32,000 bases of DNA from Aciduliprofundum boonei T469 (lineage in GTDB: Archaea > Thermoplasmatota > Thermoplasmata > Thermoplasmatales > Aciduliprofundaceae). Below, piece by piece: positions 1-31,688 of this stretch. The stretch spans positions 180,001 through 212,000 of the forward strand of contig NC_013926.1 of the NCBI RefSeq assembly GCF_000025665.1, given 5' to 3'. The notes beneath the pieces are model-generated. The model was given only the letters and a program-made list of their open reading frames with translations. It was not told where the DNA came from and did not search any database. The translations under genes were made by a program, and so were the position numbers. Numbering within the stretch: position 1 is the first letter of the stretch; each line of letters starts with the position of its first letter.

Positions 1-61
1 TTATTCCTGGACCATCGTGAATAGCATATCTCTTTATATCAAAGATTACTCCTTCACTCAT
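1..61 (-). CDS. glycyl-radical enzyme activating enzyme (radical SAM), N-terminal fragment running off the window
   Basis: Minus-strand ATG at 61..59 overlaps the GRE stop codon (ATGA at 58..61). Hand translation to the window edge gives MSEGVIFDIKRYAIHDGPGI. This matches the conserved activase N-terminus (IFxIxRxxxHDGPGIR) that precedes the CxxxCxxC cluster. It is absent from the ORF track because it has no stop inside the window. Confidence 0.8.
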   Translation of the reverse strand, partial: MSEGVIFDIKRYAIHDGPGI

Positions 62-2493
62 ACCTCCTCATGCTCCGTCCTCTTTATTATCTCATCTTGA
101 AGTCCCTTAGGCAAATTGACAAAATAATCACTATAGCCAGCAACGCGAACCATCAAATCCTGAAACTCTGGAGGCTTCTCTTGGGCTTCCTTTAGAACCT
201 CGCTACTAACAACATTGAACTGCACATGATGGCCTCCCCATCTGAAGAAATTCCTTATTAAAGCTGCTAATTTCTTAATATTCTCCTCATTTTCCAAAAG
301 GTCACCAGTTAGCTTTTGATTGAGAAGTGCTCCTCCTGTCTTTGCCCAGTCACATTTAGCAACAGAACGGAAAACTGCGGCTATGCCTTTTCTATCCATG
401 CCCTGCACAGGAGATATACCTTCAGAAACGGGATATCCAGCAATCCTACCATCAGGCGTAGCTCCAGTAACCTTCCCAAAATAAACATGCGCAGTGGTAG
501 GTAGAAAATATGCCCTCTTTGAAGCTTTTCTAATTGGTGATGGAGGATAACTCTCAATCATATCAACCACAACATCCACAATTCTTTTTGCTATCTCATC
601 AGCGTAATCGTCATCATTCCCAAACTTAGGAGTCCTATTAAGGAATCTCTGGCGCATGAGCTCATAGCCCTTGAAATTATTATCTAGGGCTTTAATAACC
701 TCATCCATCTTGAAGAATTTCTTGTCAAACACATTGTATTTGATAGATACCAAAGAATCAGTCAATGTTCCCAGGCCCACAACTTGAATGTATTGGGTAT
801 TGTATCTAGCACCTCCTACATTGTAATCCTTTGCATTCTTCACACAATCTTCTATCCAGAGAGATAGAAAGGGCACAGGTAGATATTTTGCATATAGGGC
901 TTCAATTATATCGTTGCCCTTCATCTTTATATCTAGGAAATATTTAACTTGCTTTAAAAAGGCATCCCATAGTTCTTCAAAGCTTTTAAATTCCGTAACA
1001 TCTCCCGTTTCTATGCCAACTTTCTTTCCTGTACGGGGGTCTATTCCATTATGCAAGGTTATTTCCAAAATCTTTGGGAGGTTGAAGTACCCTGTTAAAA
1101 TATATGCCTCTTTTCCAAAGGCCCCACTTTCAACACATCCACTAACCCCAGAGGTGCGAGCATCCTCTAAGCTCTTTCCCTGTCTTAGCATTCTAACAAT
1201 GAGCTCATCATAGTTGAAAAATGGAGGCTCACCAAATCCTGGACCTACAACCTTCAATGCCTCTATGAGGAATCTGTCAGGATTTCTATTGCTTATCAAC
1301 ACTGCTGTATTTAGCTGCAATGTTCTCATCTCACTGAGAACTTCTAAGATTAAATAAGAAAGCTCATTAACACCATCGTAGCCATCCTCGGTCAATCCTC
1401 CCACATTCAACTTTGAAAAATCGTTATAGGTAAAGCTCTCTTCCGCCGTAACACCAACCTTTGGCACTGCGGGCTGATTATTAAACTTGAGCCAAAAAGC
1501 TTGAAACAGCTCCTTGGCTCTTTCTCTATTCAATCTTCCTTCTTTTACATCCTTCTCGTAAAATGGATATAGATTTTGGTCAATCCTTCCGGGATTGAAT
1601 GAATCCCATGGATTTGTCTCATAAGTTACTCCAACATGAATGAACCAGTAATGTTGAAGCGCTTCCCAAAATGTTCTCGGTGCATGCTCAGGAACCCATC
1701 TGCATATTTTTGCCATATCCTCCAGCTCTTTCCTTCTCCTCTCATCCTTCTCCTTTTTTGCCATACTTTGCAATTTCTCAGCGTACCTATGTGCGTAAAT
1801 CACTATTGCATCAGCCACGATATCCATTGCTTTTAGCTCTTCCATTTTCTCATAATACTCTGGATCCTCTGGCTTTAACTCTTGCATTTTCCTCTTTATC
1901 TCATTCTTTATGTCCAAAATTCCCATCTTAAATATTCTATCCCCTCCCGCAGTATGCCCAGGAGAGCGCTGCTCCATAAATTCTGTCCAGACCCCAGATT
2001 CATAGGCATCCATCCACTCTTGTGGAAGATTTTCAAAAATTATGTCTCTCATTGCACGACCTTTCCAGAAAGGTATTACCTCTTCCTTGTATATTTCTTT
2101 AGTCTCTTCATCCACCTTATAGGGCATATTTTCTCTTTCATTCAACAATTCCAAATCATCCAAAGAGTGAACATTTATCTCAGGATATGTGGGAACTTCA
2201 TTTACTCCCGTACCCCTTATTCCCACTATAAGCTGTCCATCCTCAACAGGCAAACTAACATTTTCCATTAAATACTTGAATGCTAAAGCCCTCTGCACGG
2301 GTATGGATTTCCCCTTACCCACTTCTTTCTTGTAGAATTCAGTTATCAACTTTGCCCTTTCCCCAGAGATTTTTACCTCGATATTCACACTTTCTTCCCT
2401 TAGCTTTGCAATTCTTTGATTGATAGGCCTTATGGTATTTCTTCTCTTTTCCATTTCGGTTTCTATCTTTCCTCTTACTAAAGCTTCACTCAT
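58..2493 (-). CDS. glycyl-radical enzyme, PFL2 / glycerol-dehydratase-like family (often annotated pyruvate formate-lyase)
   Basis: C-terminal glycyl-radical fingerprint RVAGYSDYF (Gly codon at 136..138). Catalytic loop SGCVESG has a single Cys (1135..1137) followed by x-Glu. Family blocks TEFMEQRSPGH and PTYPE are present. The ORF-track start at 2514 is GTG. ATG at 2493 (MSEALVRG...) lies 7 nt downstream of GAGGAGGAGG. Confidence 0.95.
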   Translation of the reverse strand: MSEALVRGKIETEMEKRRNTIRPINQRIAKLREESVNIEVKISGERAKLITEFYKKEVGKGKSIPVQRALAFKYLMENVSLPVEDGQLIVGIRGTGVNEVPTYPEINVHSLDDLELLNERENMPYKVDEETKEIYKEEVIPFWKGRAMRDIIFENLPQEWMDAYESGVWTEFMEQRSPGHTAGGDRIFKMGILDIKNEIKRKMQELKPEDPEYYEKMEELKAMDIVADAIVIYAHRYAEKLQSMAKKEKDERRRKELEDMAKICRWVPEHAPRTFWEALQHYWFIHVGVTYETNPWDSFNPGRIDQNLYPFYEKDVKEGRLNRERAKELFQAFWLKFNNQPAVPKVGVTAEESFTYNDFSKLNVGGLTEDGYDGVNELSYLILEVLSEMRTLQLNTAVLISNRNPDRFLIEALKVVGPGFGEPPFFNYDELIVRMLRQGKSLEDARTSGVSGCVESGAFGKEAYILTGYFNLPKILEITLHNGIDPRTGKKVGIETGDVTEFKSFEELWDAFLKQVKYFLDIKMKGNDIIEALYAKYLPVPFLSLWIEDCVKNAKDYNVGGARYNTQYIQVVGLGTLTDSLVSIKYNVFDKKFFKMDEVIKALDNNFKGYELMRQRFLNRTPKFGNDDDYADEIAKRIVDVVVDMIESYPPSPIRKASKRAYFLPTTAHVYFGKVTGATPDGRIAGYPVSEGISPVQGMDRKGIAAVFRSVAKCDWAKTGGALLNQKLTGDLLENEENIKKLAALIRNFFRWGGHHVQFNVVSSEVLKEAQEKPPEFQDLMVRVAGYSDYFVNLPKGLQDEIIKRTEHEEV

Positions 2494-2546
2494 ATCTCTT
2501 CCTCCTCCTCGCACCTATGAACACTGGGAATATAATACTTTCGTGG

Positions 2547-12957: not shown

Positions 12958-13074
12958 TCCCGGCTCCCGGATTCGAACCGGGGACCTGCGGATCTCTGCT
13001 GAGCGGCGTTTATGCCCGCCCCGGGCATATCCCAACTACAGTCCGCCGCTCTAGCCAGACTGAGCTAAGCCGGG
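12958..13074 (-). tRNA. tRNA-Tyr (anticodon GTA) with a 42-nt intron at the canonical 37/38 position
   Basis: Hand-folded cloverleaf. Acceptor CCCGGCT/AGCCGGG, D arm GCTC-AGTCTGGCTA-GAGC, anticodon stem GCGGA/TCCGC with loop CTGTAG^A, T arm CCCGG-TTCGAAT-CCGGG, discriminator A. Mature length 75 nt. No encoded CCA. TATA-like CTTAAATA lies about 28 nt upstream. Confidence 0.9.
12994..13035 (-). other. tRNA-Tyr intron with bulge-helix-bulge splice motif
   Basis: Intron sequence TTGGGATATGCCCGGGGCGGGCATAAACGCCGCTCAGCAGAG. The central 4-bp helix CTGT/GCAG is flanked by 3-nt bulges (AG^T and AG^A). The outer helix is TGGG/CTCA. There is also an internal 7-bp hairpin ATGCCCG-GGG-CGGGCAT. Confidence 0.8.
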
Positions 13075-17684: not shown

Positions 17685-17686
17685 AG

Positions 17687-17771
17687 CGCCGGGGGAGGGA
17701 TTTGAACCCTCGCACCCCTTAACGGAGTACAGGCTCTCCAGGCCTGCGCCTTACCACTCGGCAACCCCGGC
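17687..17771 (-). tRNA. tRNA-Ser (anticodon GGA), class II
   Basis: 85 nt. Acceptor GCCGGGG/CCCCGGC, anticodon stem CAGGC/GCCTG with loop CTGGAGA, long variable arm, T loop TTCAAAT, discriminator G. Confidence 0.92.
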
Positions 17772-17911: not shown

Positions 17912-19054
17912 CTATTCTATACTCACCTCCACATTGCCTAAATCGTTCCAAATATAACTCAGTTCTAGGCCCTTAAACGGAACATAACAGGTCTTGTAAG
18001 AATTCGCATTTGGTCTCACTGGTACCTCTACAGGTATTTTTCCAGAACCGTTATAGCTGTAGAACACCATAACCGGATATTTTCCCGGCTTTGTGTAGTT
18101 GTGCCATACTACCTTGCTTTTTGTGATTGTATAACTCCCGTCCATCCAGAATACATAAATGTTTGTGTAATTGTAAGGTGGTTGAATTTCTAATTTCACC
18201 TCTCTTTCTCCTATCTTTGCAATATTCACATTGGGAGTAGGAAGCGATGGAATATCCTCTTGTGGTATTATTTCGAGATTTACTATTGTGGAAAAGTCAA
18301 GAACATTTTTTCCATCTCTTATCCAGAATCCAAATTTCAAAGGTATGTGTGCGTAATCCAAAAGATAACTTACATTTATGTAATTAAACAAGATATACGC
18401 GGATGAGTAAATTCTAAGATTTTTCGCATTTGTAGTTATGTTATATGTAAGATTATCCCAAGGACCAAATAGACATACGAAAGAATTTGGAGATGCATAG
18501 TATACACCATCATTCTTCAACCATGTAGTATAATTGATAGTACTATTTCTATCCAACGAAATAACACTAGAGGACTTATCTACATCTAGAGATAGAGAGA
18601 TATCTGCATCATATTTCTGTGTCTGCACTTCAGGGAGATTATATCCAACATAATCCTCTGTGAATTTTGTGAGATTTCCACGAAAGCCATGATAGGTTAT
18701 ATTTACTAGAAAACTATGATAACTCTCGTCAAGAGTTTTGGGATATATGCTAACTGATATATTTGCATATTTTATCCCCTGATATTCTAAATTCTCTGTA
18801 AAATTATAAATATGGTGGCTTTCCCACAAATTTTCCCAATAATTGAAAATTCCATCATAATCACTTTTCAAACGATTCTGATAAGCTGAATTAATATTAT
18901 GGTACCTTGCAACCTTTTCTCCCATTGAAATATCTTTAATTTCCAAATGTGTTTTTTCTACACTATGATGTCCTGCAAGATAGTACCCACTTCCACCTAC
19001 AACAAGCAGGATGAGAAGCACTATAGCCAAGAGGATTTTAGTTTTCTTGAGCAT
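17912..19054 (-). CDS. N-terminally anchored extracellular protein, sequon-rich, with a C-terminal PKD-like domain
   Basis: Signal-anchor MLKKTKILLAIVLLILLVVGG. 12 N-x-S/T sequons by hand count. C-terminal VFWMDGSYTITKSKVVWHNYTKPGKYPVMVF resembles the PKD WxFGDG...HxYxxxGxYxV pattern. AAGGAGG lies 8 nt upstream of the ATG. Confidence 0.72.
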   Translation of the reverse strand: MLKKTKILLAIVLLILLVVGGSGYYLAGHHSVEKTHLEIKDISMGEKVARYHNINSAYQNRLKSDYDGIFNYWENLWESHHIYNFTENLEYQGIKYANISVSIYPKTLDESYHSFLVNITYHGFRGNLTKFTEDYVGYNLPEVQTQKYDADISLSLDVDKSSSVISLDRNSTINYTTWLKNDGVYYASPNSFVCLFGPWDNLTYNITTNAKNLRIYSSAYILFNYINVSYLLDYAHIPLKFGFWIRDGKNVLDFSTIVNLEIIPQEDIPSLPTPNVNIAKIGEREVKLEIQPPYNYTNIYVFWMDGSYTITKSKVVWHNYTKPGKYPVMVFYSYNGSGKIPVEVPVRPNANSYKTCYVPFKGLELSYIWNDLGNVEVSIE

Positions 19055-19114: not shown

Positions 19115-19855
19115 TTATTCCCCTGCAACTATTTTCAAAACTACCTGCGTTTTCAACTCGTGCATATCCGTCCACCCCAGCAACGATGGATGGCCGTAAT
19201 ATGCTGCAACAGTGAGGATTATTGTGTGGTTGAGATGCTGTGATAGCGAATCATCAAGATTTATCTGGAGAGCAAAACTAACACCATAGAAATTCTCGTT
19301 TTTCCTGTCTTTATTCACGCCAATCAGAACATGTTTGTAAAGCCAGTTGTAATAATAAGTCTCCCCCATATAGTTAGGCGTGGGATTTGGTGTGGCATCA
19401 AACCACAGATTTGTGCTTTTAATTCTGTTCTTTATCACAGGAATATCAAGATGCACATAATCATCCTTTCCATAATCATATCTTATCACCAATTTCTGCA
19501 GTATGTAATCCCCGCTCAGGCGCTCTGCGTATGCAGTAAGGTTGCCGCCAAGTTCATCGTAGCTATTGATATCATATAGATATTCACTACATCTTAAAAC
19601 AATTCCAATCTCAAAATTTTTATTGGTGGAGAAATTCCCTGCATATTTGTTGATACCCAAAATATAATCTTCTTTGGAATAGTTTCTATAGACTGTGATG
19701 ATTGAGGGATAGCTATTCAACACGGGCTTTTCCATATCCTTCTCTGGTTTCCACCACTTCACTTTGGGTTGCGAGGCAAAATATGCGCCTAAAAGAATGG
19801 CTATCACTACAATCGCTCCAATTCCGAGTAGCAGAGCTTTCATTCTCTTGCTCAT
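19115..19855 (-). CDS. N-terminally anchored hypothetical extracellular protein
   Basis: The ORF-track start at 19882 is GTG. ATG at 19855 (MSKRMKALLLGIGAIVVIAILLGAYF) lies 5 nt downstream of GGAGGT. Single TM anchor, 4 sequons, Tyr/Asn-rich. Confidence 0.68.
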   Translation of the reverse strand: MSKRMKALLLGIGAIVVIAILLGAYFASQPKVKWWKPEKDMEKPVLNSYPSIITVYRNYSKEDYILGINKYAGNFSTNKNFEIGIVLRCSEYLYDINSYDELGGNLTAYAERLSGDYILQKLVIRYDYGKDDYVHLDIPVIKNRIKSTNLWFDATPNPTPNYMGETYYYNWLYKHVLIGVNKDRKNENFYGVSFALQINLDDSLSQHLNHTIILTVAAYYGHPSLLGWTDMHELKTQVVLKIVAGE

Positions 19856-20014
19856 CCTTTTACCTCCATGCATCATTCCCACATAGGCATTTCGTATTCT
19901 CTCAAATCAATAAAATGCATGTGAGTCGTTATATATATCCTTTATCACAACTATACAAAATTTCAAGATTGACTCAGAAATACAGAAAATTAGCTCATTC
20001 ATCTCAAAGAAAAA

Positions 20015-20046: not shown

Positions 20047-20120
20047 GCCACCGTAGCTTAGCCCGGAAGAGCGGCTGACTTGTAATCAGCAGGTCGGGGG
20101 TTCGAATCCCCCCGGTGGCT
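20047..20120 (+). tRNA. tRNA-Thr (anticodon TGT)
   Basis: 74 nt. Acceptor GCCACCG/CGGTGGC, anticodon stem GCTGA/TCAGC with loop CTTGTAA, T arm GGGGG-TTCGAAT-CCCCC, discriminator T. Followed by CTTTTCTC. Confidence 0.93.
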
Positions 20121-20137
20121 CTTTTCTCGGAGCTAAA

Positions 20138-20168: not shown

Positions 20169-20250
20169 GCGGGGATGGCCGAGCGGTACGGCGATGGCCT
20201 GCTAAGCCATTGGGCTATTGCCCGCGGGGGTTCAAATCCCCCTCCCCGCG
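20169..20250 (+). tRNA. tRNA-Ser (anticodon GCT), class II
   Basis: 82 nt. Acceptor GCGGGGA/TCCCCGC, anticodon stem ATGGC/GCCAT with loop CTGCTAA, long variable arm TGGGCTATTGCCCGC, T arm GGGGG-TTCAAAT-CCCCC, discriminator G. Confidence 0.92.
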
Positions 20251-20949
20251 CTATTTAATCTTTTGATACTTGGAAAAGAAAACATGGGCATTTGTAATAT
20301 AAAAGTTCCAGAGACTCGCAAAAACTATACCTACAAAATCAGCAATGATATAATTAATTCCCAAGCGATTGAGAACCCAGTATGTACCAACATTTATGAA
20401 AATCCCCATAATTAGTGTGAAATGATAGGCACCCATTCTCCACCATATAGAGCGTGTATAAACCCTATTTGAAAATACCCAATAATTGTTCATTAAGAAA
20501 GTGATTATTATACTTATCTCTATTGCAGAGACTAGAGATATTAAATCAGGAATTTTTAAAATTTTGAAAAGAATGACAAAGAATACCATATTGATGAGAA
20601 CTCCCGCAATACCTGTTGAGAAATATTTAACAACAACCCACATAACCTTATACTCCCTTAAAACTATGAGAAGATCCTTTCTTCTGCGCCTATTAGATTT
20701 AATTTTACTAGATATAACAGAGGCAGTTTTATAACTACCATTAACCAAGATTTCCGCTAAATTCCTATCTTTATCAATACCATAAATCTCACCATTATAC
20801 CCAAATATAGGTGCAAGGGGATTGTATTTTAAAGACGGAAAAAATACCTTAAGGATAAATATCAATAATCTTGTAATCCAATTATCATCATACACGAGCA
20901 CAAGATCATACTTCTTCATTTTTTCCCTAATTTCATCTTCTAACTCCAT
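20251..20949 (-). CDS. GtrA-family membrane protein with an uncharacterised ~110-aa N-terminal extension
   Basis: The C-terminal four-TM GtrA pattern has the two hallmark N(N/F)YWVF / WNFYITN...VFF motifs. The N-terminal region ends in a basic RRRRK stretch. The stop codon abuts the 3' end of tRNA-Ser(GCT). Confidence 0.78.
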   Translation of the reverse strand: MELEDEIREKMKKYDLVLVYDDNWITRLLIFILKVFFPSLKYNPLAPIFGYNGEIYGIDKDRNLAEILVNGSYKTASVISSKIKSNRRRRKDLLIVLREYKVMWVVVKYFSTGIAGVLINMVFFVILFKILKIPDLISLVSAIEISIIITFLMNNYWVFSNRVYTRSIWWRMGAYHFTLIMGIFINVGTYWVLNRLGINYIIADFVGIVFASLWNFYITNAHVFFSKYQKIK

Positions 20950-23092: not shown

Positions 23093-24952
23093 GTGAGATT
23101 TCCATACAAGTATCGCAAAGGGCAAAAGGATATCGTCAAGGATATTGAAGAAGTCCTGGAGAATAGAATGCATATGGTATTTGAGGCCCCTACAGGCTCT
23201 GGAAAGACCATTGCCACACTATATCCCGCTGTAAAATACGCAATTAAGAACGATAAAAAAGTAATTTATTTGGTACATACAAATTCTCAAGAAAGGCAGG
23301 TAATAAAAGAAGCAAAGAAGCTCGAAATAAGGGCAATAGCCCTTCAAGGCCGTGCAAATCTATGTCCTCTTGCTAGGGAGAGAAACGAGTTGCAGCATGG
23401 CTCTCCAGATGAACTTGCTCTGCTTTGCAATAAATTGAAGAAGGATGTTAAAGAGGGAAATGAGAACGCCTGCATTTATTATGCAAACTATTTAAAAAAT
23501 GGAAATGATATAAGAAAAATTATAGAGGAGAACCCAACAGCAGAGGAATTTTTTGAAAAAGCTATGAATTTAAAAATATGTGCATATGAAGCCATAAAAG
23601 ATGCTCTACCAGATGCAACGGTGATAGTTTTCCCTTACATCTATTTTTTCTTTCCCTTTATAAGGCGTGGAATAATGGACAAAATTGGAGTGCCTATGGG
23701 GGACATTATTCTCATAGTTGATGAAGCCCACAATATTCCAGATTTCGCAAGGGAACTAAAAAGCATGGAGCTAAGCGTGAATTCATTAGAAAATATGGAA
23801 AAAGAGGCTCTGGATTATGGAAATCCACAAGTTTTGGGGCATAGTATAGCGGATATTGCAGAGTTCTTAAAAGAGGCAATCTACAAGATGCAAAAATTTG
23901 TTGAAGATGAAGAGGGAATAATACCACATTATGCCTTTGAAGAAGAGGTATCCAATGTTTTGGGAATTAGCATAAACGACTTTGACACTTTAGCCAAGGA
24001 TTTAATTTATTATGGTGAGATGGTGAGAGAGAACAAGGTAAAGCATAGGAAACTTCCAAGATCCTATATGTATCATACTGGCTCATTCCTGTATTTCTGG
24101 AGAGAAGCGTATTCTTACGAGTACATACGTCTAATAAAATGGGGCAAAACGCTATCTTTAGAGGTCTATTGCCTAGACCCTGCAACTGTTACGGATGCTT
24201 TGCTCAATGTTCATTCCTCCATCCATTTATCGGGAACTTTAGTGCCGAATGAGTACAAAAATATAGTTGCACTTCCAGATAATACAATAACAAAAAGGTA
24301 TCCATCACCCTTTCCCAAGGAGAATCTAAAAATTTTATATGTGGATGATGTCACCACAAAATACGGAGAGGTAGATGAAAACCTGCCCCGCATTGCCGAG
24401 CATCTAACAAAAATAATCAGCATCGGGAAAAACACCGCTATATTCTTTCCCTCATACTCGCTTCTATCAAAAATTAAAGAATTGCTTGATTCAAAAATTT
24501 TGAGCGAGGAGAGGGGCATGAAAACATACAGTCTGTTTCAGATGATTGAGAATTTCAAAGAAAAAGGTGGTTCTATTCTCTCAGTAATAGGTGGAAGAAT
24601 TTTTGAAGGTCTTGATTTTCCAGGCAAACTCTTAGAAATTGTTGTAATTGTAGGAATACCTTATCCAAAACCAACACCAAAAGTCAAAGCTCTTCAAAGA
24701 TACTACGACTCGAAATTTGGCAACGGATGGGAATATGCATTTAGAATGCCTGCTTTGATAAAAATGCGCCAGGCCATAGGTAGATTAATAAGAAGCGAAG
24801 AAGACAGGGGCATTGCCATAATATTGGACAAGAGAGCCGCATCATTCAAAGGGGATTTACCCCTGGAAAAGGCAGAAAATTTAGTGAAAGAAATAAGGGA
24901 GTTTTTCCAAGGGAATGAAAAAGGGGAGGAGGGGCGTCATCGTGAGCCATAA
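23093..24952 (+). CDS. xpd: XPD/Rad3-family 5'-3' DNA helicase with a 4Fe-4S domain
   Basis: Walker A EAPTGSGKT, DEAH box VDEAHNIP, four Cys between motifs Ia and II (LCPL, LCNKL, ACIYY, ICAYE), and C-terminal motifs GGRIFEGLDF and QAIGRLIRS. GTG start. Confidence 0.92.
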   Translation: MRFPYKYRKGQKDIVKDIEEVLENRMHMVFEAPTGSGKTIATLYPAVKYAIKNDKKVIYLVHTNSQERQVIKEAKKLEIRAIALQGRANLCPLARERNELQHGSPDELALLCNKLKKDVKEGNENACIYYANYLKNGNDIRKIIEENPTAEEFFEKAMNLKICAYEAIKDALPDATVIVFPYIYFFFPFIRRGIMDKIGVPMGDIILIVDEAHNIPDFARELKSMELSVNSLENMEKEALDYGNPQVLGHSIADIAEFLKEAIYKMQKFVEDEEGIIPHYAFEEEVSNVLGISINDFDTLAKDLIYYGEMVRENKVKHRKLPRSYMYHTGSFLYFWREAYSYEYIRLIKWGKTLSLEVYCLDPATVTDALLNVHSSIHLSGTLVPNEYKNIVALPDNTITKRYPSPFPKENLKILYVDDVTTKYGEVDENLPRIAEHLTKIISIGKNTAIFFPSYSLLSKIKELLDSKILSEERGMKTYSLFQMIENFKEKGGSILSVIGGRIFEGLDFPGKLLEIVVIVGIPYPKPTPKVKALQRYYDSKFGNGWEYAFRMPALIKMRQAIGRLIRSEEDRGIAIILDKRAASFKGDLPLEKAENLVKEIREFFQGNEKGEEGRHREP

Positions 24953-25063: not shown

Positions 25064-28000
25064 TTAAGAGAAATAATTTTTGAACAATCTTTTAGCTTCC
25101 TCTGTGGTGTATTTTTGTATTTTGACGCTTCTTTTGCGCATAATTGCCTTTACTATTCCTACAATTTCACCCTCTTTTATAACCATATATCCCTGAAAAT
25201 CCATGGGTTTTATGTATTGCCAGAGCATAGATACTGGGTCCTTTGGGTCAAGAATAATAACATCATCGTAAATTTCGATATTTTCAATATTCTCCATATC
25301 CTCATTTGGAATTCTATAAAGATTTCCATCGTTGAGAAATATACCCTTGGTCAAATTCATCCTGTTTAGAATTTCTGCAGATTCATAACTTGAAACATAT
25401 CCCCCACTCAAATGACAAACAATCTCGGGATTGACGAACCCTAAAATGTTAACCAAGTTCTCTACATATTTTTGAGAGGCATAATCCCTGGAGTATAAAG
25501 GCTTTATATAGATATAGCCTGAAGGATACTTTGCTATGTAATTTCCTGTGTAGAGAGATGTTAAAGCCCTCCTAGTTTTCTCACTTCCCAAAGGTGATTC
25601 TTCAATTATGCTGCGAACTTCCATCTTACCATACTTTTCAAGGATTTTCAATACAACTTCCATATCCTTATCTAAATGCATATTTTTCAAAGATTGGTAA
25701 ATACCAACATTCTCCTTGCTCGCATAAATAATATGTCCCTGCAAATCCAATGTCTCATAGAGAAGCTCAGAGTGGTAATACTTTTCAATCTCTATGGGCT
25801 TGTAAGCACGTACATTTTCCAATGAATTGTGTAAACCCATTAAGAATCTCGCAACATCAAGAGTGGTTTTTAACTTTCTTCCAGATATAACCCTGCTCTT
25901 CCAGAGGAGATAAGCAAAGATATCTTTAGGGGAAAATTGAATGGAACTTACATCTCCCGAAACATAGTAATCTCCTATTCTCCTATAGCTCTCATTTTTA
26001 GGATCATTTGAAGTTATTACAATACTCTCTTTTGCAAGAATTTCATAAGCATTTTTATTTCCCATAAATTCATTTACATAAATATGGTCTGAGTGTCTCT
26101 TTAATTCCATAATGCTTAGGAGTTTTCCATCCTTCACATAAACATGACTCAAAACTTCTCCAAAATGGTCATAGAGCTCATTCAATCTTGTGTATATATA
26201 AGGGTCATCCGATGGGATGATATACTCTCCCTTACCATCTCCCTCAATATTCCCCTCGGTATAATAGAATATTTTTCCTCCTGCACTTATCTTCTTGAAC
26301 TTCCCAAGATAATCTTTTGGATCCAGGGCCGTTATATTCTCAATATCTTTCTTCGTCAACGGACCATAGCCCTTCACTATTCTCTCAAAAAACTCTTCCA
26401 TACTTCCATTTGGCTGTATTTTCATTATTTTGAAAGGATAATCTCCGGGCTTTTTGTTTGGTAAAACTTTGCGATATATGTACAGATTATTCTCCAATTT
26501 CTCAATTATTTTCTTTATTTCATGAGGATACATGTTGCTCATTTCTTTAAGCGTGGAAAATGTGGCTCTATCTCCAAGCAATCCTATCTGAGACAGGACT
26601 TTGCGATCATTTTCATTTAGCCCTCTTTTTCTATACACTGCTATTAGTAGAGGCAAAGTTGCTCTGCTTGCATAGCACAGCCTACCTCTCATAAATCTTC
26701 CATAAAGTACCTCTTCCCTTCTCAAAGCCTCTGTAAATTGCTCATAGGCATTTCTTATACGCATAGAATCCTCATTAAAAAGTACCAAGAATTTTTCAAA
26801 ATACTCGTCCATGCCCATCTCTCTGACTATCTTTCCAAATCGATAGGCCTGCAAAGATTCTTCATCAATTCCTGATTCTTTCAAAATCTCGTTGTAATCG
26901 GAACGAAGCATGTACTGCTCTCCATAACCCACAAGAAACACGCCTTTAACAACCTCTCCCTCTTCAACCAAATATTTTAAAGCTTTCCTAATATCCTCCT
27001 CTGAAATATGCAGAGAATAAACTATCTCCTCAAAGGTTAGGGGAGCCCGGAAATAAAGGAGTTTTTTAATCAAAATCTCTAAAGCATAATTCCTTTCAAT
27101 TGTTATTCTTTCTCTCCTATACCAGTATGTCTTACCTTCCTTTATTTTGCGTCCTACAAGGTATGCTTTTTCCATACTTTTCAAAATTTCCAATACCTCT
27201 TGCACTTTTTTCTTTTTCTCCTTGGCAATCTCTTCGGCAGTTTTTAAACCTTCAAACTCCATTATGTTATCAGAATTCTTGGAGTAAAGAGTCGCAAATA
27301 TTGGATAATTTTGAGGTGTGGTCCAGAGAAGGCGTGTTGTGTAAACGGATACAATCTTATCATCCCAAATTAGTTCTTCAACCATCTTTTTGAGTTTATC
27401 GTTTGGTATCTCAGAGTAATCATAAATGTTTATACCCCTTCTCCGAAGTACATCAGTTCCGGGGGCTAAATCAAGAAAGCGCAAAATATCCTCTTTGCCC
27501 CTAACCTTTATCTTATTCTGAAAATAAGCACTTACTTGTGCCTCATCAAACATGGCAGCTAGTTCTTCCTTGGGTATCACTCTCTCCAAGAGTTTCATAT
27601 GCAGTTCCTTGAGCAATGCACTGCGGTCTTCCATTAAAACTATATCCGAAATACCCGATAGAATTATGCTATGAGCAAAGATGCTGGGTGTATCGCTATA
27701 TGGCACTATTTTAACTTCGATTTCACCATTTTCAATCTTCCTTAGAACTTCCTTTGCATGGGGCAAATCCATAACTATGTTGAATATCTCATTGTATGTC
27801 TCTTCCATAACTGGAAAATCCGGTATCTCGCTTAAAAGACGCAATATCTTATCGCTCCTAAGCTGCTGTCTTGCTACGGATATATCTCTTCCCTTGTATC
27901 TTCGCAGAACCATGAAAGAGCGAGATGCACAGTGTCTAAATCTCTGCTTGAAAAGCTCTGTATTAAATATGGCCCTCCGCAAGGCATCTTCAATCTCATC

Positions 28001-30130
28001 CGAACTTAAAAGATTCTTTATATCTTCAAGACGAATTCTACGCTTAAGGGTAAGCATAAAGGCATCATCGGTTATGCTTATACCAACATTTACACCATAC
28101 TTCTCGGTTATTTTGAAAGCGTAAGCTCTTGAAAGGGCATCATTGACCCTCCTCCCAAACGGATAATGGAAAATTATGTTGTGTTTCCCTGCAGGGTCCA
28201 CATACCCCTCTATCACAACCCTCTTGTGCGTGGGTACTATGTGGTGCATCCCCTGCTTTATATAAGATACGATACTTCTCGCACCCCTGTAATCCAGATA
28301 ATAATCCTTCATCAAAATCTCAATCGTCTTTTTCTCTCCTCTCTCCCTTATATTTTTCTCTACAAACTCTCTAAATTTTCCAACTTCAACACTTAGATCA
28401 AATGAGCGGGGGAGCATCTCGCCAACCCAAGAAGGAACTGTGGGTCTCTTACCTGTGGCATCTTTCACTACAACTTTCCCAGTTCTTATGCTCAGCACTT
28501 CATAGCTTCTCGCACCTAAAACAAAAACATCTCCTTTCTGCAATTTTTCTACAAATTTCTCGCTTAAGCTGCCCAATCTCTTCCCTTCGTGGTCAATAAC
28601 AAGATAATCTGCCTCATCTGGAATTGTACCCATGTTCATAAAATAAATCATTCTGCTACTGCGTTTCCTTCCAAATACCATGTCCTCCTCGTCAAACCAT
28701 ATCTTTGAATAAACTGTGTCCCCTAAAACATAGCCCCCGAGGTAGCGAAGCACTTGTATGAATTTCTCCTTGGGCAACTCGTGATAACAGTAAGAGGAGC
28801 GAATTATATTGTAGGCTTCATCCACATTCCACCTCTTCTCTATGCTCATACCCACTATGATTTGAGAGAGAACATCTAGAGAGTTCTTAGGAATTCTAAC
28901 TCTATCAATCTTGCCATCGTATGCGCATTTAACCAATGTGGTGCATTCTATTAGCTCATCATTATCAAAAACCAAGAATCTGCCTTTAGCCGTGGCACCA
29001 TAAGCATGTCCACTGCGCCCTATTCTCTGCAATCCCTTGGCGATGCTCTTTGGAGAGCCAATTTGCACAACCACATCAATGTACCCTATATCAATGCCCA
29101 ATTCAAGAGATGTTGAAGATATAACAGCCTTCAACTTCCCCTCCTTCAATGCTTTCTCAACTCTCAACCTCGTTTCTTTGCTCAAAGAGCCATGATGCGC
29201 TTCTAAATTTTCAATACCCTTCTCCTTAAGCTTGTAAGCCACATGCTCAGTTCCACTTCTAGTATTTGTGAAAATCAGCGTTGTACGATGCCTGTTTATT
29301 ATATCCACCAAAACATCGTACATCTTCTCATTTGCAACCTCGTAAGGCACGAGGGTTAAATCCTCAACAGGCGTTATAACCTTTAAATCAAGTTTTTTCC
29401 TCACCTCAACTTCAACAATACTCACATTCCTTGGCTCCTCCCCTTCATATCCAACAAGATACTTTGCAATCTCTTCTATGGGTGCTTGAGTTGCGCTTAG
29501 CCCTATTCGCTGAAAATTCTTGGCGAGATATTGCAACCTTTCAAGATTCAAAGATAGCATAACTCCCCTCTTATTATTTGCAAGCTCGTGTATCTCATCG
29601 ACAATTACATACCTAACATCCCTGAAACTCTCTCTAAACTTTGGGGCTGTGAGAACGAGGGATAGGGACTCAGGAGTGGTTATGAAAATATGAGGAGGCT
29701 TCCGAAGCATTTTTTGTCTCTCTGCAGTGCTCGTATCACCAGAGCGAACTGCTACACGAATCTTTGGAATTTTGACCCCTTTGCTCTTAGCCAGATCTTT
29801 TATCTCTTCCAAGGGCACTTCAAGGTTCCTATGTATATCATTTGCAAGGGCTTTGAGGGGGGATACATAAACGCAGTAGACCTTATCCTCAAGCTTTCCC
29901 TCTTTGGCTAAAAGAAATAATTCATTGATAATGGATATGAAAGCAGTCAGAGTTTTACCACTCCCTGTGGGTGAAGATACAAGAACATTCTTACCTGAAT
30001 GAATTAGGGGGATCGCATAAGCCTGAGGCTCTGTAAGCTCGGAATACTTGGAAGTAAACCACTCCCCTATAATCGGGTCAAAAAGCGATATCACCTCGTC
30101 CATGCTGTACATCTTAGTAGCTCTCTCCAT
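25064..30130 (-). CDS. lhr: Lhr-family ATP-dependent helicase, long form (1688 aa)
   Basis: SF2 motifs SPTGSGKT, VDEIHE, GLSATQ, LIFTNTRS, SSTSLELGIDIG, QRIGRSGH. An Lhr-specific DEAD-associated region follows (FHYPFGRRVNDALSRAYA). After that comes an extension of about 800 aa, rich in winged-helix-like segments. Confidence 0.92.
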   Translation of the reverse strand: MERATKMYSMDEVISLFDPIIGEWFTSKYSELTEPQAYAIPLIHSGKNVLVSSPTGSGKTLTAFISIINELFLLAKEGKLEDKVYCVYVSPLKALANDIHRNLEVPLEEIKDLAKSKGVKIPKIRVAVRSGDTSTAERQKMLRKPPHIFITTPESLSLVLTAPKFRESFRDVRYVIVDEIHELANNKRGVMLSLNLERLQYLAKNFQRIGLSATQAPIEEIAKYLVGYEGEEPRNVSIVEVEVRKKLDLKVITPVEDLTLVPYEVANEKMYDVLVDIINRHRTTLIFTNTRSGTEHVAYKLKEKGIENLEAHHGSLSKETRLRVEKALKEGKLKAVISSTSLELGIDIGYIDVVVQIGSPKSIAKGLQRIGRSGHAYGATAKGRFLVFDNDELIECTTLVKCAYDGKIDRVRIPKNSLDVLSQIIVGMSIEKRWNVDEAYNIIRSSYCYHELPKEKFIQVLRYLGGYVLGDTVYSKIWFDEEDMVFGRKRSSRMIYFMNMGTIPDEADYLVIDHEGKRLGSLSEKFVEKLQKGDVFVLGARSYEVLSIRTGKVVVKDATGKRPTVPSWVGEMLPRSFDLSVEVGKFREFVEKNIRERGEKKTIEILMKDYYLDYRGARSIVSYIKQGMHHIVPTHKRVVIEGYVDPAGKHNIIFHYPFGRRVNDALSRAYAFKITEKYGVNVGISITDDAFMLTLKRRIRLEDIKNLLSSDEIEDALRRAIFNTELFKQRFRHCASRSFMVLRRYKGRDISVARQQLRSDKILRLLSEIPDFPVMEETYNEIFNIVMDLPHAKEVLRKIENGEIEVKIVPYSDTPSIFAHSIILSGISDIVLMEDRSALLKELHMKLLERVIPKEELAAMFDEAQVSAYFQNKIKVRGKEDILRFLDLAPGTDVLRRRGINIYDYSEIPNDKLKKMVEELIWDDKIVSVYTTRLLWTTPQNYPIFATLYSKNSDNIMEFEGLKTAEEIAKEKKKKVQEVLEILKSMEKAYLVGRKIKEGKTYWYRRERITIERNYALEILIKKLLYFRAPLTFEEIVYSLHISEEDIRKALKYLVEEGEVVKGVFLVGYGEQYMLRSDYNEILKESGIDEESLQAYRFGKIVREMGMDEYFEKFLVLFNEDSMRIRNAYEQFTEALRREEVLYGRFMRGRLCYASRATLPLLIAVYRKRGLNENDRKVLSQIGLLGDRATFSTLKEMSNMYPHEIKKIIEKLENNLYIYRKVLPNKKPGDYPFKIMKIQPNGSMEEFFERIVKGYGPLTKKDIENITALDPKDYLGKFKKISAGGKIFYYTEGNIEGDGKGEYIIPSDDPYIYTRLNELYDHFGEVLSHVYVKDGKLLSIMELKRHSDHIYVNEFMGNKNAYEILAKESIVITSNDPKNESYRRIGDYYVSGDVSSIQFSPKDIFAYLLWKSRVISGRKLKTTLDVARFLMGLHNSLENVRAYKPIEIEKYYHSELLYETLDLQGHIIYASKENVGIYQSLKNMHLDKDMEVVLKILEKYGKMEVRSIIEESPLGSEKTRRALTSLYTGNYIAKYPSGYIYIKPLYSRDYASQKYVENLVNILGFVNPEIVCHLSGGYVSSYESAEILNRMNLTKGIFLNDGNLYRIPNEDMENIENIEIYDDVIILDPKDPVSMLWQYIKPMDFQGYMVIKEGEIVGIVKAIMRKRSVKIQKYTTEEAKRLFKNYFS

Positions 30131-30183: not shown

Positions 30184-31035
30184 TCACAATTTTAAATTTC
30201 TCAGTATCCTTTTAGCAGTGGGGGTCGCAGCTATTCCCCCCTTCCCCGTCTCCCTTAAACTCTCAGGTAAAGCCCTACCGACCTTCTCCATTGCTTCTAC
30301 AACTTCATCAAATGGTATAACGCTCTCAATTCCAGCCATAGCCATCTCAGCACTAGCAATGGCAATATTCACCGCAGTTGCATTCCTCTTCACACAAGGC
30401 ACCTCCACAAAGCCCCCCACAGGGTCACATACAAGACCCATCAGAGATTTTAGAGCTATAGCAGCAGCGTGAGCGCATTTCTCCCCGTCCCCCGTGTAAT
30501 AATATGTTAGCATGGCAGCAGCCATTGCAGCTCCAGAACCTATCTCTGCCTGACATCCTCCCTCCGCACCTGCCAATGTGGCTTTCTTGGAAATTACATC
30601 CCCAATACCACCAGCCACAATAAAAGAATTAAGCAATTTATCAAAATCTTCTTCCTTACTCCACAATGCATAAACTATACCCGACATAACCCCACAGGCA
30701 CCAGCAGTTGGGCACGCTACGATTCTCCCCATTGCAGCATTACTCTCGGCAAAGCTCAAAGCGGATATCATTGCTACCCTGTTGAATTCGCTTATGAATT
30801 TTTGTTTGTAATTTTTCATCTTCCAAGCATTCGTACCTGTCATTCCCGTCAAGGTTCTCTGCTTCTTTCCAAAATTTCTGGCACCTTCTCTTATAATCGC
30901 TCTCAATATCTTAGCAGCTCCTTTCCTCGTAATTTCGGGTGGCACACCCATATTCTCATACTCAGTATCCAAAATTATCTCGTGCAAAGGCCTTTTTTTA
31001 TCCTTGCTTCTTTTAACCAAATCCCCAAAATTCAT
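30184..31035 (-). CDS. sdaAA: L-serine dehydratase, iron-sulfur-dependent, alpha subunit
   Basis: CPTAGACGV, GAEGGCQAEIGSGAAMAAA, DPVGGFVEVPCVKRN. The ORF-track start at 31041 is TTG. ATG at 31035 lies 2 nt after the sdaAB stop. Confidence 0.93.
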   Translation of the reverse strand: MNFGDLVKRSKDKKRPLHEIILDTEYENMGVPPEITRKGAAKILRAIIREGARNFGKKQRTLTGMTGTNAWKMKNYKQKFISEFNRVAMISALSFAESNAAMGRIVACPTAGACGVMSGIVYALWSKEEDFDKLLNSFIVAGGIGDVISKKATLAGAEGGCQAEIGSGAAMAAAMLTYYYTGDGEKCAHAAAIALKSLMGLVCDPVGGFVEVPCVKRNATAVNIAIASAEMAMAGIESVIPFDEVVEAMEKVGRALPESLRETGKGGIAATPTAKRILRNLKL

Positions 31036-31037
31036 CT

Positions 31038-31688
31038 TCAATCCCTCGGTATGTAAAATAACTCATAAACATAATCACATTCTTCCACTTTTTTTAAATC
31101 TTCCTTGGGCAAATTCTCATCCATTTCAATTATCCCTATCGCTATGTTCTCTGCAGCATTCACCCTGCGCATGTACAAATTCACGATATTCCTGGTGATA
31201 TTTTTCAGAATCTTGCTCATAGCTCCTACCTTGTCCTTCATAACTAGAACCAAGGTATTGTACTCCCAAGCAATATCGCATTCAACATCCTTGATTCTAA
31301 CTATCTTTATCTCTCCTCCCCCAATTGAAGAGCCCATCACATTGTAAATCTTCCCTCCTTTCCAAGTTTCAATAAGGACTGTGTTAGGATGCACATCTCC
31401 CAAATCCTCCTGGGCAAACTCATACTTGACTCCCAATTTATCTGCAATCTCATAGGCGTCCTTTATCCTTTCATCATTGGGCCTCATTCCCAAAATCCCT
31501 GCTAAAAGGGCTTTGTCAGTACCATGGCCTTTAAGGGTCTCCGCAAAAGAGCCATGAAGAGTGAACCTAACCTCCTCAGGAATACCTCCAGAAAATTTGT
31601 ATGCAAATCTTGCAATTCTCAGAGCGCCAAGAGTGTGTGAACTCGAGGGCCCAACCATAACGGGTCCAAGAACATCCAGTATTGCCAT
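31038..31688 (-). CDS. sdaAB: L-serine dehydratase, iron-sulfur-dependent, beta subunit (with ACT-like C-terminal domain)
   Basis: N-terminal GPVMVGPSSSHTLGA. Gene order beta-alpha with tight coupling. TTTATTCT (rc of 31710..31717) lies 25.5 nt upstream of the ATG. Confidence 0.93.
   Translation of the reverse strand: MAILDVLGPVMVGPSSSHTLGALRIARFAYKFSGGIPEEVRFTLHGSFAETLKGHGTDKALLAGILGMRPNDERIKDAYEIADKLGVKYEFAQEDLGDVHPNTVLIETWKGGKIYNVMGSSIGGGEIKIVRIKDVECDIAWEYNTLVLVMKDKVGAMSKILKNITRNIVNLYMRRVNAAENIAIGIIEMDENLPKEDLKKVEECDYVYELFYIPRD

Follow-up and report, generated by a model that had tools for sequence, protein, structure and literature searches.

The long-form Lhr helicase of Aciduliprofundum boonei carries a tail of three paralogous winged-helix units related to AlkZ/YcaQ

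Lhr is among the most widespread and least understood repair helicases, and the role of its AlkZ-like tail is debated, with a tetramerisation scaffold proposed for mycobacteria and a uracil glycosylase for Escherichia coli. The C-terminal domain (CTD) of Mycobacterium smegmatis Lhr (MsmLhr-CTD) consists of five winged helices (WH) and a beta barrel, in which WH4-6 and the barrel are homologous to AlkZ; it forms a tetramer and lacks the AlkZ catalytic residues, its AlkZ-like DNA cleft is occluded, and no DNA binding was detected (PMC8053096). The Lhr-CTD of E. coli acts as a uracil-DNA glycosylase despite having no QxQ motif. In archaea, most Lhr proteins are 800-950 aa in length (PMC8053096, PMC8301817). 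Hajj et al. (2021) found some aLhr2 proteins to be longer, with one HTH_42 domain in the tail of Methanomassiliicoccales and 'no detected Pfam domain' in that of Thermoplasmatales, and their table lists aLhr2 in Aciduliprofundum boonei (Aboo_0197), Thermoplasma and Picrophilus (PMC8301817). Here we analysed a 32,000-nucleotide stretch of the A. boonei T469 genome (NC_013926.1, positions 180,001 to 212,000; hereafter the window), in which a long-form lhr gene encodes a helicase core followed by an 833-aa tail made of three paralogous units.

The lhr gene is one unbroken open reading frame (ORF) of 1688 codons plus stop, and its 1688-aa product is divided into a core and the tail. The gene and its core are located as follows:

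25064..30130, minus strand: complete long-form lhr gene, aLhr2-type by literature assignment (single ORF; length in agreement with 66 full-length homologues of 1586-1942 aa)
27566..30130, minus strand: Lhr core, residues 1-855, with RecA1, RecA2, WH and Domain 4 (NF010338, Pfam matches and motifs in the translation)

The core matched NCBIfam NF010338 over residues 2-853 with 1151 bits (cutoff 849). Pfam matches within it were DEAD (PF00270, residues 33-218, E 2e-34), Helicase_C (PF00271, 272-375, E 4e-18), WH_Lhr (PF19306, 405-563, 124 bits) and DEAD_assoc, i.e. Domain 4 (PF08494, 632-819, 205.7 bits), and the translation shows intact helicase motifs I (SPTGSGKT), II (DEIH), III (SAT) and VI (QRIGRSGH). 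With superfamily 2 RecA1 and RecA2 domains bearing intact ATPase/helicase motifs, the Lhr-specific WH and Domain 4, the protein is an Lhr helicase, as a previous reading of the DNA letters without database searches (hereafter the sequence-only reading) had named it. That reading had placed the end of the core near residue ~880, followed by about 800 aa; the NCBIfam match moves the end to near residue 855, which leaves 833 aa for the tail. Assignment to aLhr2, not aLhr1, would follow from the published survey, in which long C-termini are found only in aLhr2 and Aciduliprofundum and Thermoplasma are among the entries (PMC8301817).

To describe the tail, we use three units, R1 to R3:

26831..27565, minus strand: R1, residues 856-1100, three WH and a helical linker, no beta module (AlphaFold2 secondary structure, hhalign)
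25958..26830, minus strand: R2, residues 1101-1391, three WH and beta module 1, first complete AlkZ-like module (AlphaFold2, PF06224 in relatives, hhalign)
25067..25957, minus strand: R3, residues 1392-1688, three WH and beta module 2, second complete AlkZ-like module (AlphaFold2, Foldseek, hhalign)

The AlphaFold2 model of the 833-aa tail, built from an alignment of homologues, had a mean predicted local distance difference test score (pLDDT) of 90.1 and showed nine WH and two small beta modules. The approximate boundaries in this model are WH-a 863-937, WH-b 942-1005 and WH-c 1013-1075, then the helical linker, in R1; WH-d 1107-1155, WH-e 1173-1235, WH-f 1244-1290 and beta module 1 1302-1391 in R2; and WH-g 1401-1470, WH-h 1488-1541, WH-i 1548-1608 and beta module 2 1624-1688 in R3. 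The sequence-only reading had pointed out winged-helix-like segments in the tail, and both peptides quoted for them are present, at residues 1031-1063 and 1503-1535.

In a Foldseek comparison with the Protein Data Bank (PDB), the best matches of the whole CTD model were AlkZ (5UUJ, E 1e-9), MsmLhr-CTD (7LHL) and DNA-bound AlkX/YcaQ (9ZD6), the families to which the sequence-only reading had proposed to compare it. We also modelled residues 1371-1688 (R3) separately (pLDDT 94.9, predicted template modelling score 0.90). By itself, this model matched 5UUJ with E 4e-11 over 356 columns (TMq 0.66, TMt 0.58), then 9ZD6 and 7LHL; the next match had an E-value of only 0.03, a gap given as nine orders of magnitude. 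The template modelling (TM) scores of R3 against 5UUJ and 9ZD6 were 0.53-0.66. As modelled, R3 is a complete AlkZ-like fold on its own. The layout of three tandem WH followed by a C-terminal beta module is found in R3, based on AlphaFold2 and Foldseek, and in R2, based on the order of secondary structures and its alignment with R3 (E 3.7e-25), and R1 has only the triple-WH part of this HTH_42 layout.

The relationship among the units was established by profile comparison. BLASTP self-comparison of the tail gave no match, and hhalign with a 5-sequence profile gave an insignificant repeat (E 0.06); both were too insensitive, and deeper family profiles were therefore needed. With an alignment of 36 sequences, residues 1138-1359 matched 1453-1678 (E 9.5e-13) and residues 860-1118 matched 1398-1652 (E 1.9e-6). 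With an alignment of 67 sequences, composed of the earlier set and full-length sequences from an exhaustive search, R2 (1095-1395) matched R3 (1392-1688) with E 3.7e-25 and a probability of 99.7% over 245 collinear columns including the beta module, and R1 (856-1100) matched R2 with E 2e-18 and R3 with E 4.9e-14. Reversed or column-shuffled controls gave E >= 0.037. These E-values and the negative controls established that the tail consists of three paralogous units, of which R1 is a triple WH and R2 and R3 are each a triple WH with a beta module.

The sequence-only reading had proposed a tandem duplication with two copies of an AlkZ-like pattern about 320 aa apart. The duplication is real and the measured offset is 318-321 residues, but the count was too low, since three related units are present, two of them complete. 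All six peptides quoted in that reading were found in the translation, four of them marking the two copies of the pattern:

26066..26224, minus strand: copy 1, residues 1303-1355, IIPSDDP motif and beta hairpin of beta module 1 (aligned to copy 2 by hhalign)
25109..25261, minus strand: copy 2, residues 1624-1674, ILDPKDP motif and beta hairpin of beta module 2 (aligned to YcaQ by hhalign)

Copy 1 comprises YIIPSDDPYIYT (residues 1303-1314, nt 26189-26224) and HVYVKDGKLLSIMELKRHSDHIYVNEF (1329-1355, nt 26066-26146); copy 2 comprises VIILDPKDPVSMLWQ (1624-1638, nt 25217-25261) and GYMVIKEGEIVGIVKAIMRKRSVKIQKY (1647-1674, nt 25109-25192). The columns of D1309 and P1310 in copy 1 and of D1631 in copy 2 are >= 85% conserved.

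Relatedness to AlkZ/YcaQ was also detected at the sequence level, once profiles were used on both sides. Neither the CTD sequence nor the R3 profile matched AlkZ or Lhr in a sequence search of the PDB, and hhalign of R1, R2, R3 or the CTD against E. coli YcaQ as a single sequence was not significant. We assembled a YcaQ-family profile from 12 diverse sequences, E. coli YcaQ and 11 homologues that a tblastn search of plasmid records had yielded. Against this profile, R3 gave E 1.1e-10 spanning YcaQ 4-356, R2 gave E 2.4e-8 spanning YcaQ 58-360, and R1 gave E 5.7e-8 spanning YcaQ 27-273; controls were negative. In Pfam, the tail of the window protein stayed below threshold, the higher score being that of AlkZ-rel (PF24741) at residues 1135-1219 (21.5 bits, cutoff 26.5), whereas PF06224 was above its gathering cutoff (25.9) in R2 of five relatives (P0018, 29 bits; P0019, 36; P0033, 64; P0034, 82; P0035, 70). 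Based on these matches and its own profile match to YcaQ, R2 is AlkZ-like in sequence. In R3 of distant members, PF06224 was over the cutoff in one (26.7 bits) and PF23234 (WH4_Lhr) was matched in 8 of 9.

The pattern of the two copies was likewise traced to YcaQ. In the hhalign alignment, VIILDPKDP...GYMVIKEGEIVGIVKA of the window protein was matched with AVLSPFDP...GYFVLPLLHRGQLVGRMDAK of YcaQ, a region that reads SPFD...GY..P.L..G..VGR.D.K. Judged from this alignment, the pattern, which the sequence-only reading had associated with the C-terminal part of AlkZ/DUF1006-like proteins, is the characteristic C-terminal signature of the YcaQ family. The relation of the tail to AlkZ and Lhr-CTD proposed there is supported by the modelled structure and, for AlkZ/YcaQ, by profile as well. 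When the R3 profile was compared with the PDB, weak matches to CBS-domain/IMP dehydrogenase proteins covered the 'ILDP.D....G..V...G..VG.V' segment of beta module 2; they were at chance level (E ~0.16-0.2) and were judged a chance beta-hairpin pattern, and we rejected such a relationship.

The catalytic motif of HTH_42 glycosylases is Q-phi-D (YQL), (Q/H)-phi-Q (AZL) or (H/Q)-phi-(S/T)(D/E) (AZL2), phi being hydrophobic (PMC9040887), and the site of E. coli YcaQ is LLQIDT, with Q45-I46-D47. We located the corresponding segments in R3 and R2:

25808..25837, minus strand: candidate active-site motif of R3, GLHNSLENVR, residues 1432-1441, counterpart of LLQIDT (hhalign of R3 against YcaQ)
26753..26779, minus strand: R2 counterpart, FNEDSMRIR, residues 1118-1126 (R2/R3 alignment, column counts)

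Among the 67 aligned sequences, the R3 consensus is G-phi-[H/R]-[S/N]-[D/E]-phi-E-x-phi-R, and the window protein reads HNSLE. G1432 is kept in 43/67; position 1434 is His in 29/67 and Arg in 28/67; 1435 is Ser or Asn; 1436 is Asp in 40/67 and Glu in 10/67 (Asp or Glu in 50/67); and 1437 is hydrophobic. Position 1438 (Glu in the window protein) is acidic in 64/67 and R1441 is Arg in 61/67. No polar columns of R3 other than E1438, R1441 and D1631 reach 85% conservation. In the R2 counterpart, only R1126 is conserved across the family and Ser, Asp or Glu stands at the Glu position; by column counts, the R2 site looks degenerate. R1 has G-T-D-V-L at this position. R3 with its conserved acidic/basic motif at the catalytic-motif position is a plausible glycosylase, as far as alignment can indicate.

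The three-unit architecture is shared by a Thermoplasmata-wide family with at least 66 full-length representatives. First homologue searches gave about 30 relatives at full length (1675-1762 aa), with tails of 27-96% identity, and a word-indexed search gave 34 homologues. An exhaustive HMMER search with the R3 profile, covering 1.84 billion representatives, gave 115 clusters, 66 of them full-length (1586-1942 aa); in nearly all of the full-length matches the R3 module lies at the extreme C-terminus, and many have 2-3 matched stretches. Named cluster members belong to Thermoplasmata, and genome matches were to metagenome-assembled genomes of Aciduliprofundum, the DHVE2 group, Thermoplasmata and one 'Methanobacteriota archaeon'. 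The architecture is present in 16 GTDB species genomes (loci L001-L016), across which the Lhr core is 66-95% and the tail 28-82% identical. The closest relatives of the window protein are Aciduliprofundum-like with 82-96% identity, and the best locus in a scan of species-representative genomes is 86% identical. No identical locus came up in that scan, so the source genome is either missing from the set or masked in it.

No canonical free-standing AlkZ/YcaQ was found among the 115 clusters. Matches of 330-460 aa to the R3 profile start within R2 or at the end of a contig and appear to be fragments, and free-standing R3-type genes as a source of the module are therefore unsupported.

The reading that we favour, to which we give a probability of about 0.7, is that the protein is an aLhr2-type Lhr whose 833-residue CTD was built up as an HTH_42 (AlkZ/YcaQ-like) unit was repeatedly duplicated within the protein, with R3 as the likeliest lesion-binding site and R1 and R2 in auxiliary roles. 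By analogy with known systems, the core would act as a 3'-to-5' single-stranded DNA translocase/helicase, and the C-shaped HTH_42 modules would bind duplex DNA beside the motor and recognise damage in it. R3 is singled out because it gives the best full-length YcaQ match and is the sole unit with a strongly conserved acidic/basic motif; it is the likeliest place for functional binding of lesions and might be an N-glycosylase. R1 and R2 would be degenerate paralogues that may add to DNA binding or scaffolding and perhaps give in cis what CTD tetramerisation gives bacterial Lhr.

Several observations weigh against this reading. The canonical (Q/H)-phi-(D/Q) or AZL2 motif is absent from R1, R2 and R3 of the window protein; position 1436 is Ser in the window protein and its closest relatives; and the R3 motif can be placed against YcaQ Q45/D47 only to within 1-2 residues. 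PF06224 scored 13-15 bits at residues 976-1062 of the window protein, below its cutoff of 25.9, beta modules 1 and 2 are much shorter than that of YcaQ (gaps in the alignment), and no significant hhalign match linked the CTD, R1, R2 or R3 to the one E. coli Lhr-CTD sequence used. In addition, MsmLhr-CTD, without the motif and with an occluded cleft, shows that an HTH_42 fold does not have to be catalytic when it is part of Lhr.

Much of this evidence also speaks for the strongest alternative, a tail of the same architecture that is non-catalytic and serves as a scaffold for DNA/RNA binding, oligomerisation or partner docking, with no glycosylase unit. We regard it as a serious competitor, although somewhat short of an even chance. 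It accounts for the missing catalytic motif and the Ser at the D/E position 1436, and it has a precedent in the tetramerisation domain of MsmLhr. It also agrees with the rapid evolution of the CTD: mean identity to the window protein is 33-43% in the tail and 67% in the core, and columns >= 85% conserved among the 67 members make up only 3-4.5% of R1-R3, compared with 36% of the core. On the other hand, the Lhr-CTD from E. coli is active as a glycosylase without QxQ, and the near-invariant Glu and Arg sit within the catalytic-motif segment of R3. All three units have persisted in a family whose members can be as little as 16-27% identical, and this speaks for selection acting on every unit.

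A stronger version of the favoured reading is unlikely, in our estimate, though worth stating. In it, R3 (perhaps R2 in some lineages) would be an active glycosylase with a non-canonical [H/R]-x-[D/E]-phi-E...R site, and the protein a multi-headed helicase-driven glycosylase. The tandem HTH_42 units would then replace the bacterial tetramer in cis and could read the two arms, or the two strands, of a fork or crosslink at the same time, and the helicase-HTH_42 fusion would be older than the split of bacteria and archaea.

Three HTH_42 copies in tandem, each conserved in its own right, support an ancient link between such modules and the Lhr core. The conserved acidic motif of R3 versus the degenerate R2 offers natural material for separation of function, with E1438, R1441, H1434 and D1631 as the residues singled out for mutation.

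The remaining explanations are refuted. That there is a single AlkZ-like module, its second copy being a chance likeness of generic WH domains without duplication, might be suggested by the empty BLASTP self-comparison, the shallow-profile E of 0.06 and the fact that WH domains are common and mutually similar; it is highly improbable in view of the R2/R3 match with its collinear columns through the beta module, the negative controls, the recovery of the whole AlkZ fold by R3 by itself, and the above-cutoff PF06224 scores in R2 of relatives. Still less credible is an artefact, either mis-assembly or read-through that joined an Lhr-core gene to free-standing AlkZ-like genes downstream of it, for which the usual 800-950 aa of archaeal Lhr could be cited, because the architecture is continuous in the 66 full-length representatives, which come from assemblies made independently (NCBI, JGI, ENA and Logan), and in 16 GTDB species genomes, the short R3-profile matches look like contig-end fragments, and no free-standing R3-type gene is evident.

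The lhr gene is flanked in the window by the following genes:

23093..24952, plus strand: XPD/Rad3-type helicase gene, 619 aa (DEAD_2, HBB and Helicase_C_2; Pfam)
30184-31041, minus strand: split L-serine dehydratase, alpha chain (Pfam)
31038-31688, minus strand: split L-serine dehydratase, beta chain (Pfam)

The XPD/Rad3-type gene is convergent with lhr, and 111 nt separate their stop codons. This pairing is kept in the closest relatives (loci L001-L006) and was not found in the more distant DHVE2 loci (L007-L016); in some of these the sequence stops at the end of lhr or shortly beyond it. A functional lhr-XPD pair as a family feature is unsupported, the synteny being confined to the closest clade; the adjacency is probably lineage-specific synteny and not a functional module. 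Immediately upstream of lhr, and sharing its strand, are the serine dehydratase genes; only 53 nt separate them from the start of lhr, so these genes may be co-transcribed with it.

Other features were identified farther away in the window:

58-2514, minus strand: pyruvate formate-lyase (PFL)-like glycyl radical enzyme, 818 aa (PFL-like, 747 bits, and Gly_radical)
12958-13074, minus strand: tRNA, 117 nt (Rfam, 55 bits; not reported by ARAGORN)
17686-17771, minus strand: tRNA-Ser (GGA)
20047-20121, plus strand: tRNA-Thr (TGT)
20169-20251, plus strand: tRNA-Ser (GCT)

The PFL-like protein is a notable anaerobic enzyme for a DHVE2-type archaeon. The 117-nt tRNA is probably an intron-containing archaeal tRNA, and the Thr-TGT and Ser-GCT genes form a small cluster. 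Two ORFs, 17912-19054 (minus strand, 380 aa) and 19115-19882 (minus strand, 255 aa), had no Pfam match at E <= 0.001.

Compared with what has been described, the window Lhr almost certainly belongs to the same protein family as the long aLhr2 of Methanomassiliicoccales and Thermoplasmatales; long tails were reported for that family and the R1-R2-R3 tandem organisation was not described (PMC8301817). The sequence-only reading had implied that the architecture was rare and held that abundant identical architectures would take away its novelty. The same layout is in fact the rule in the Thermoplasmata-wide family, and the protein family and its length were known, so the novelty is reduced. What is left of it is the domain-level tandem architecture, which is apparently undescribed: our literature search brought up no paper in which Lhr is described with HTH_42 units in tandem. 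The long Thermoplasmata aLhr2 tails, formerly without a detected domain, are now given a domain identity; this is an incremental insight into annotation and architecture and not a new kind of system.

The bacterial bLhr-HTH proteins of M. smegmatis (7LHL) and E. coli share with the window protein the Lhr core as well as a C-terminal WH array containing an AlkZ-like subdomain of three WH and a beta barrel (Foldseek E ~1e-7 to 7LHL), and the canonical QxQ is missing in both. Module count and order differ: the bacterial CTD of ~610-640 aa has five WH and one barrel, arranged as a WH2-WH3 subdomain followed by the AlkZ-like WH4-6 and barrel, whereas the Aciduliprofundum tail of 833 aa has nine WH and two beta modules. 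With AlkZ (5UUJ), YcaQ/AlkX (9ZD6) and PF06224, the tail shares the C-shaped fold of three WH and a beta module (TM of R3 to AlkZ, 0.58-0.66), and it retains the SPFD-like 'DP' motif along with the beta hairpin G..VG..K. AlkZ and YcaQ are free-standing enzymes with the canonical catalytic motifs, whereas the units of the Lhr tail are fused to a helicase as two complete copies and one partial copy, with shortened beta modules, [H/R]-[S/N]-[D/E]-phi-E (HNSLE in the window protein) at the motif position of R3 and a degenerate segment in R2.

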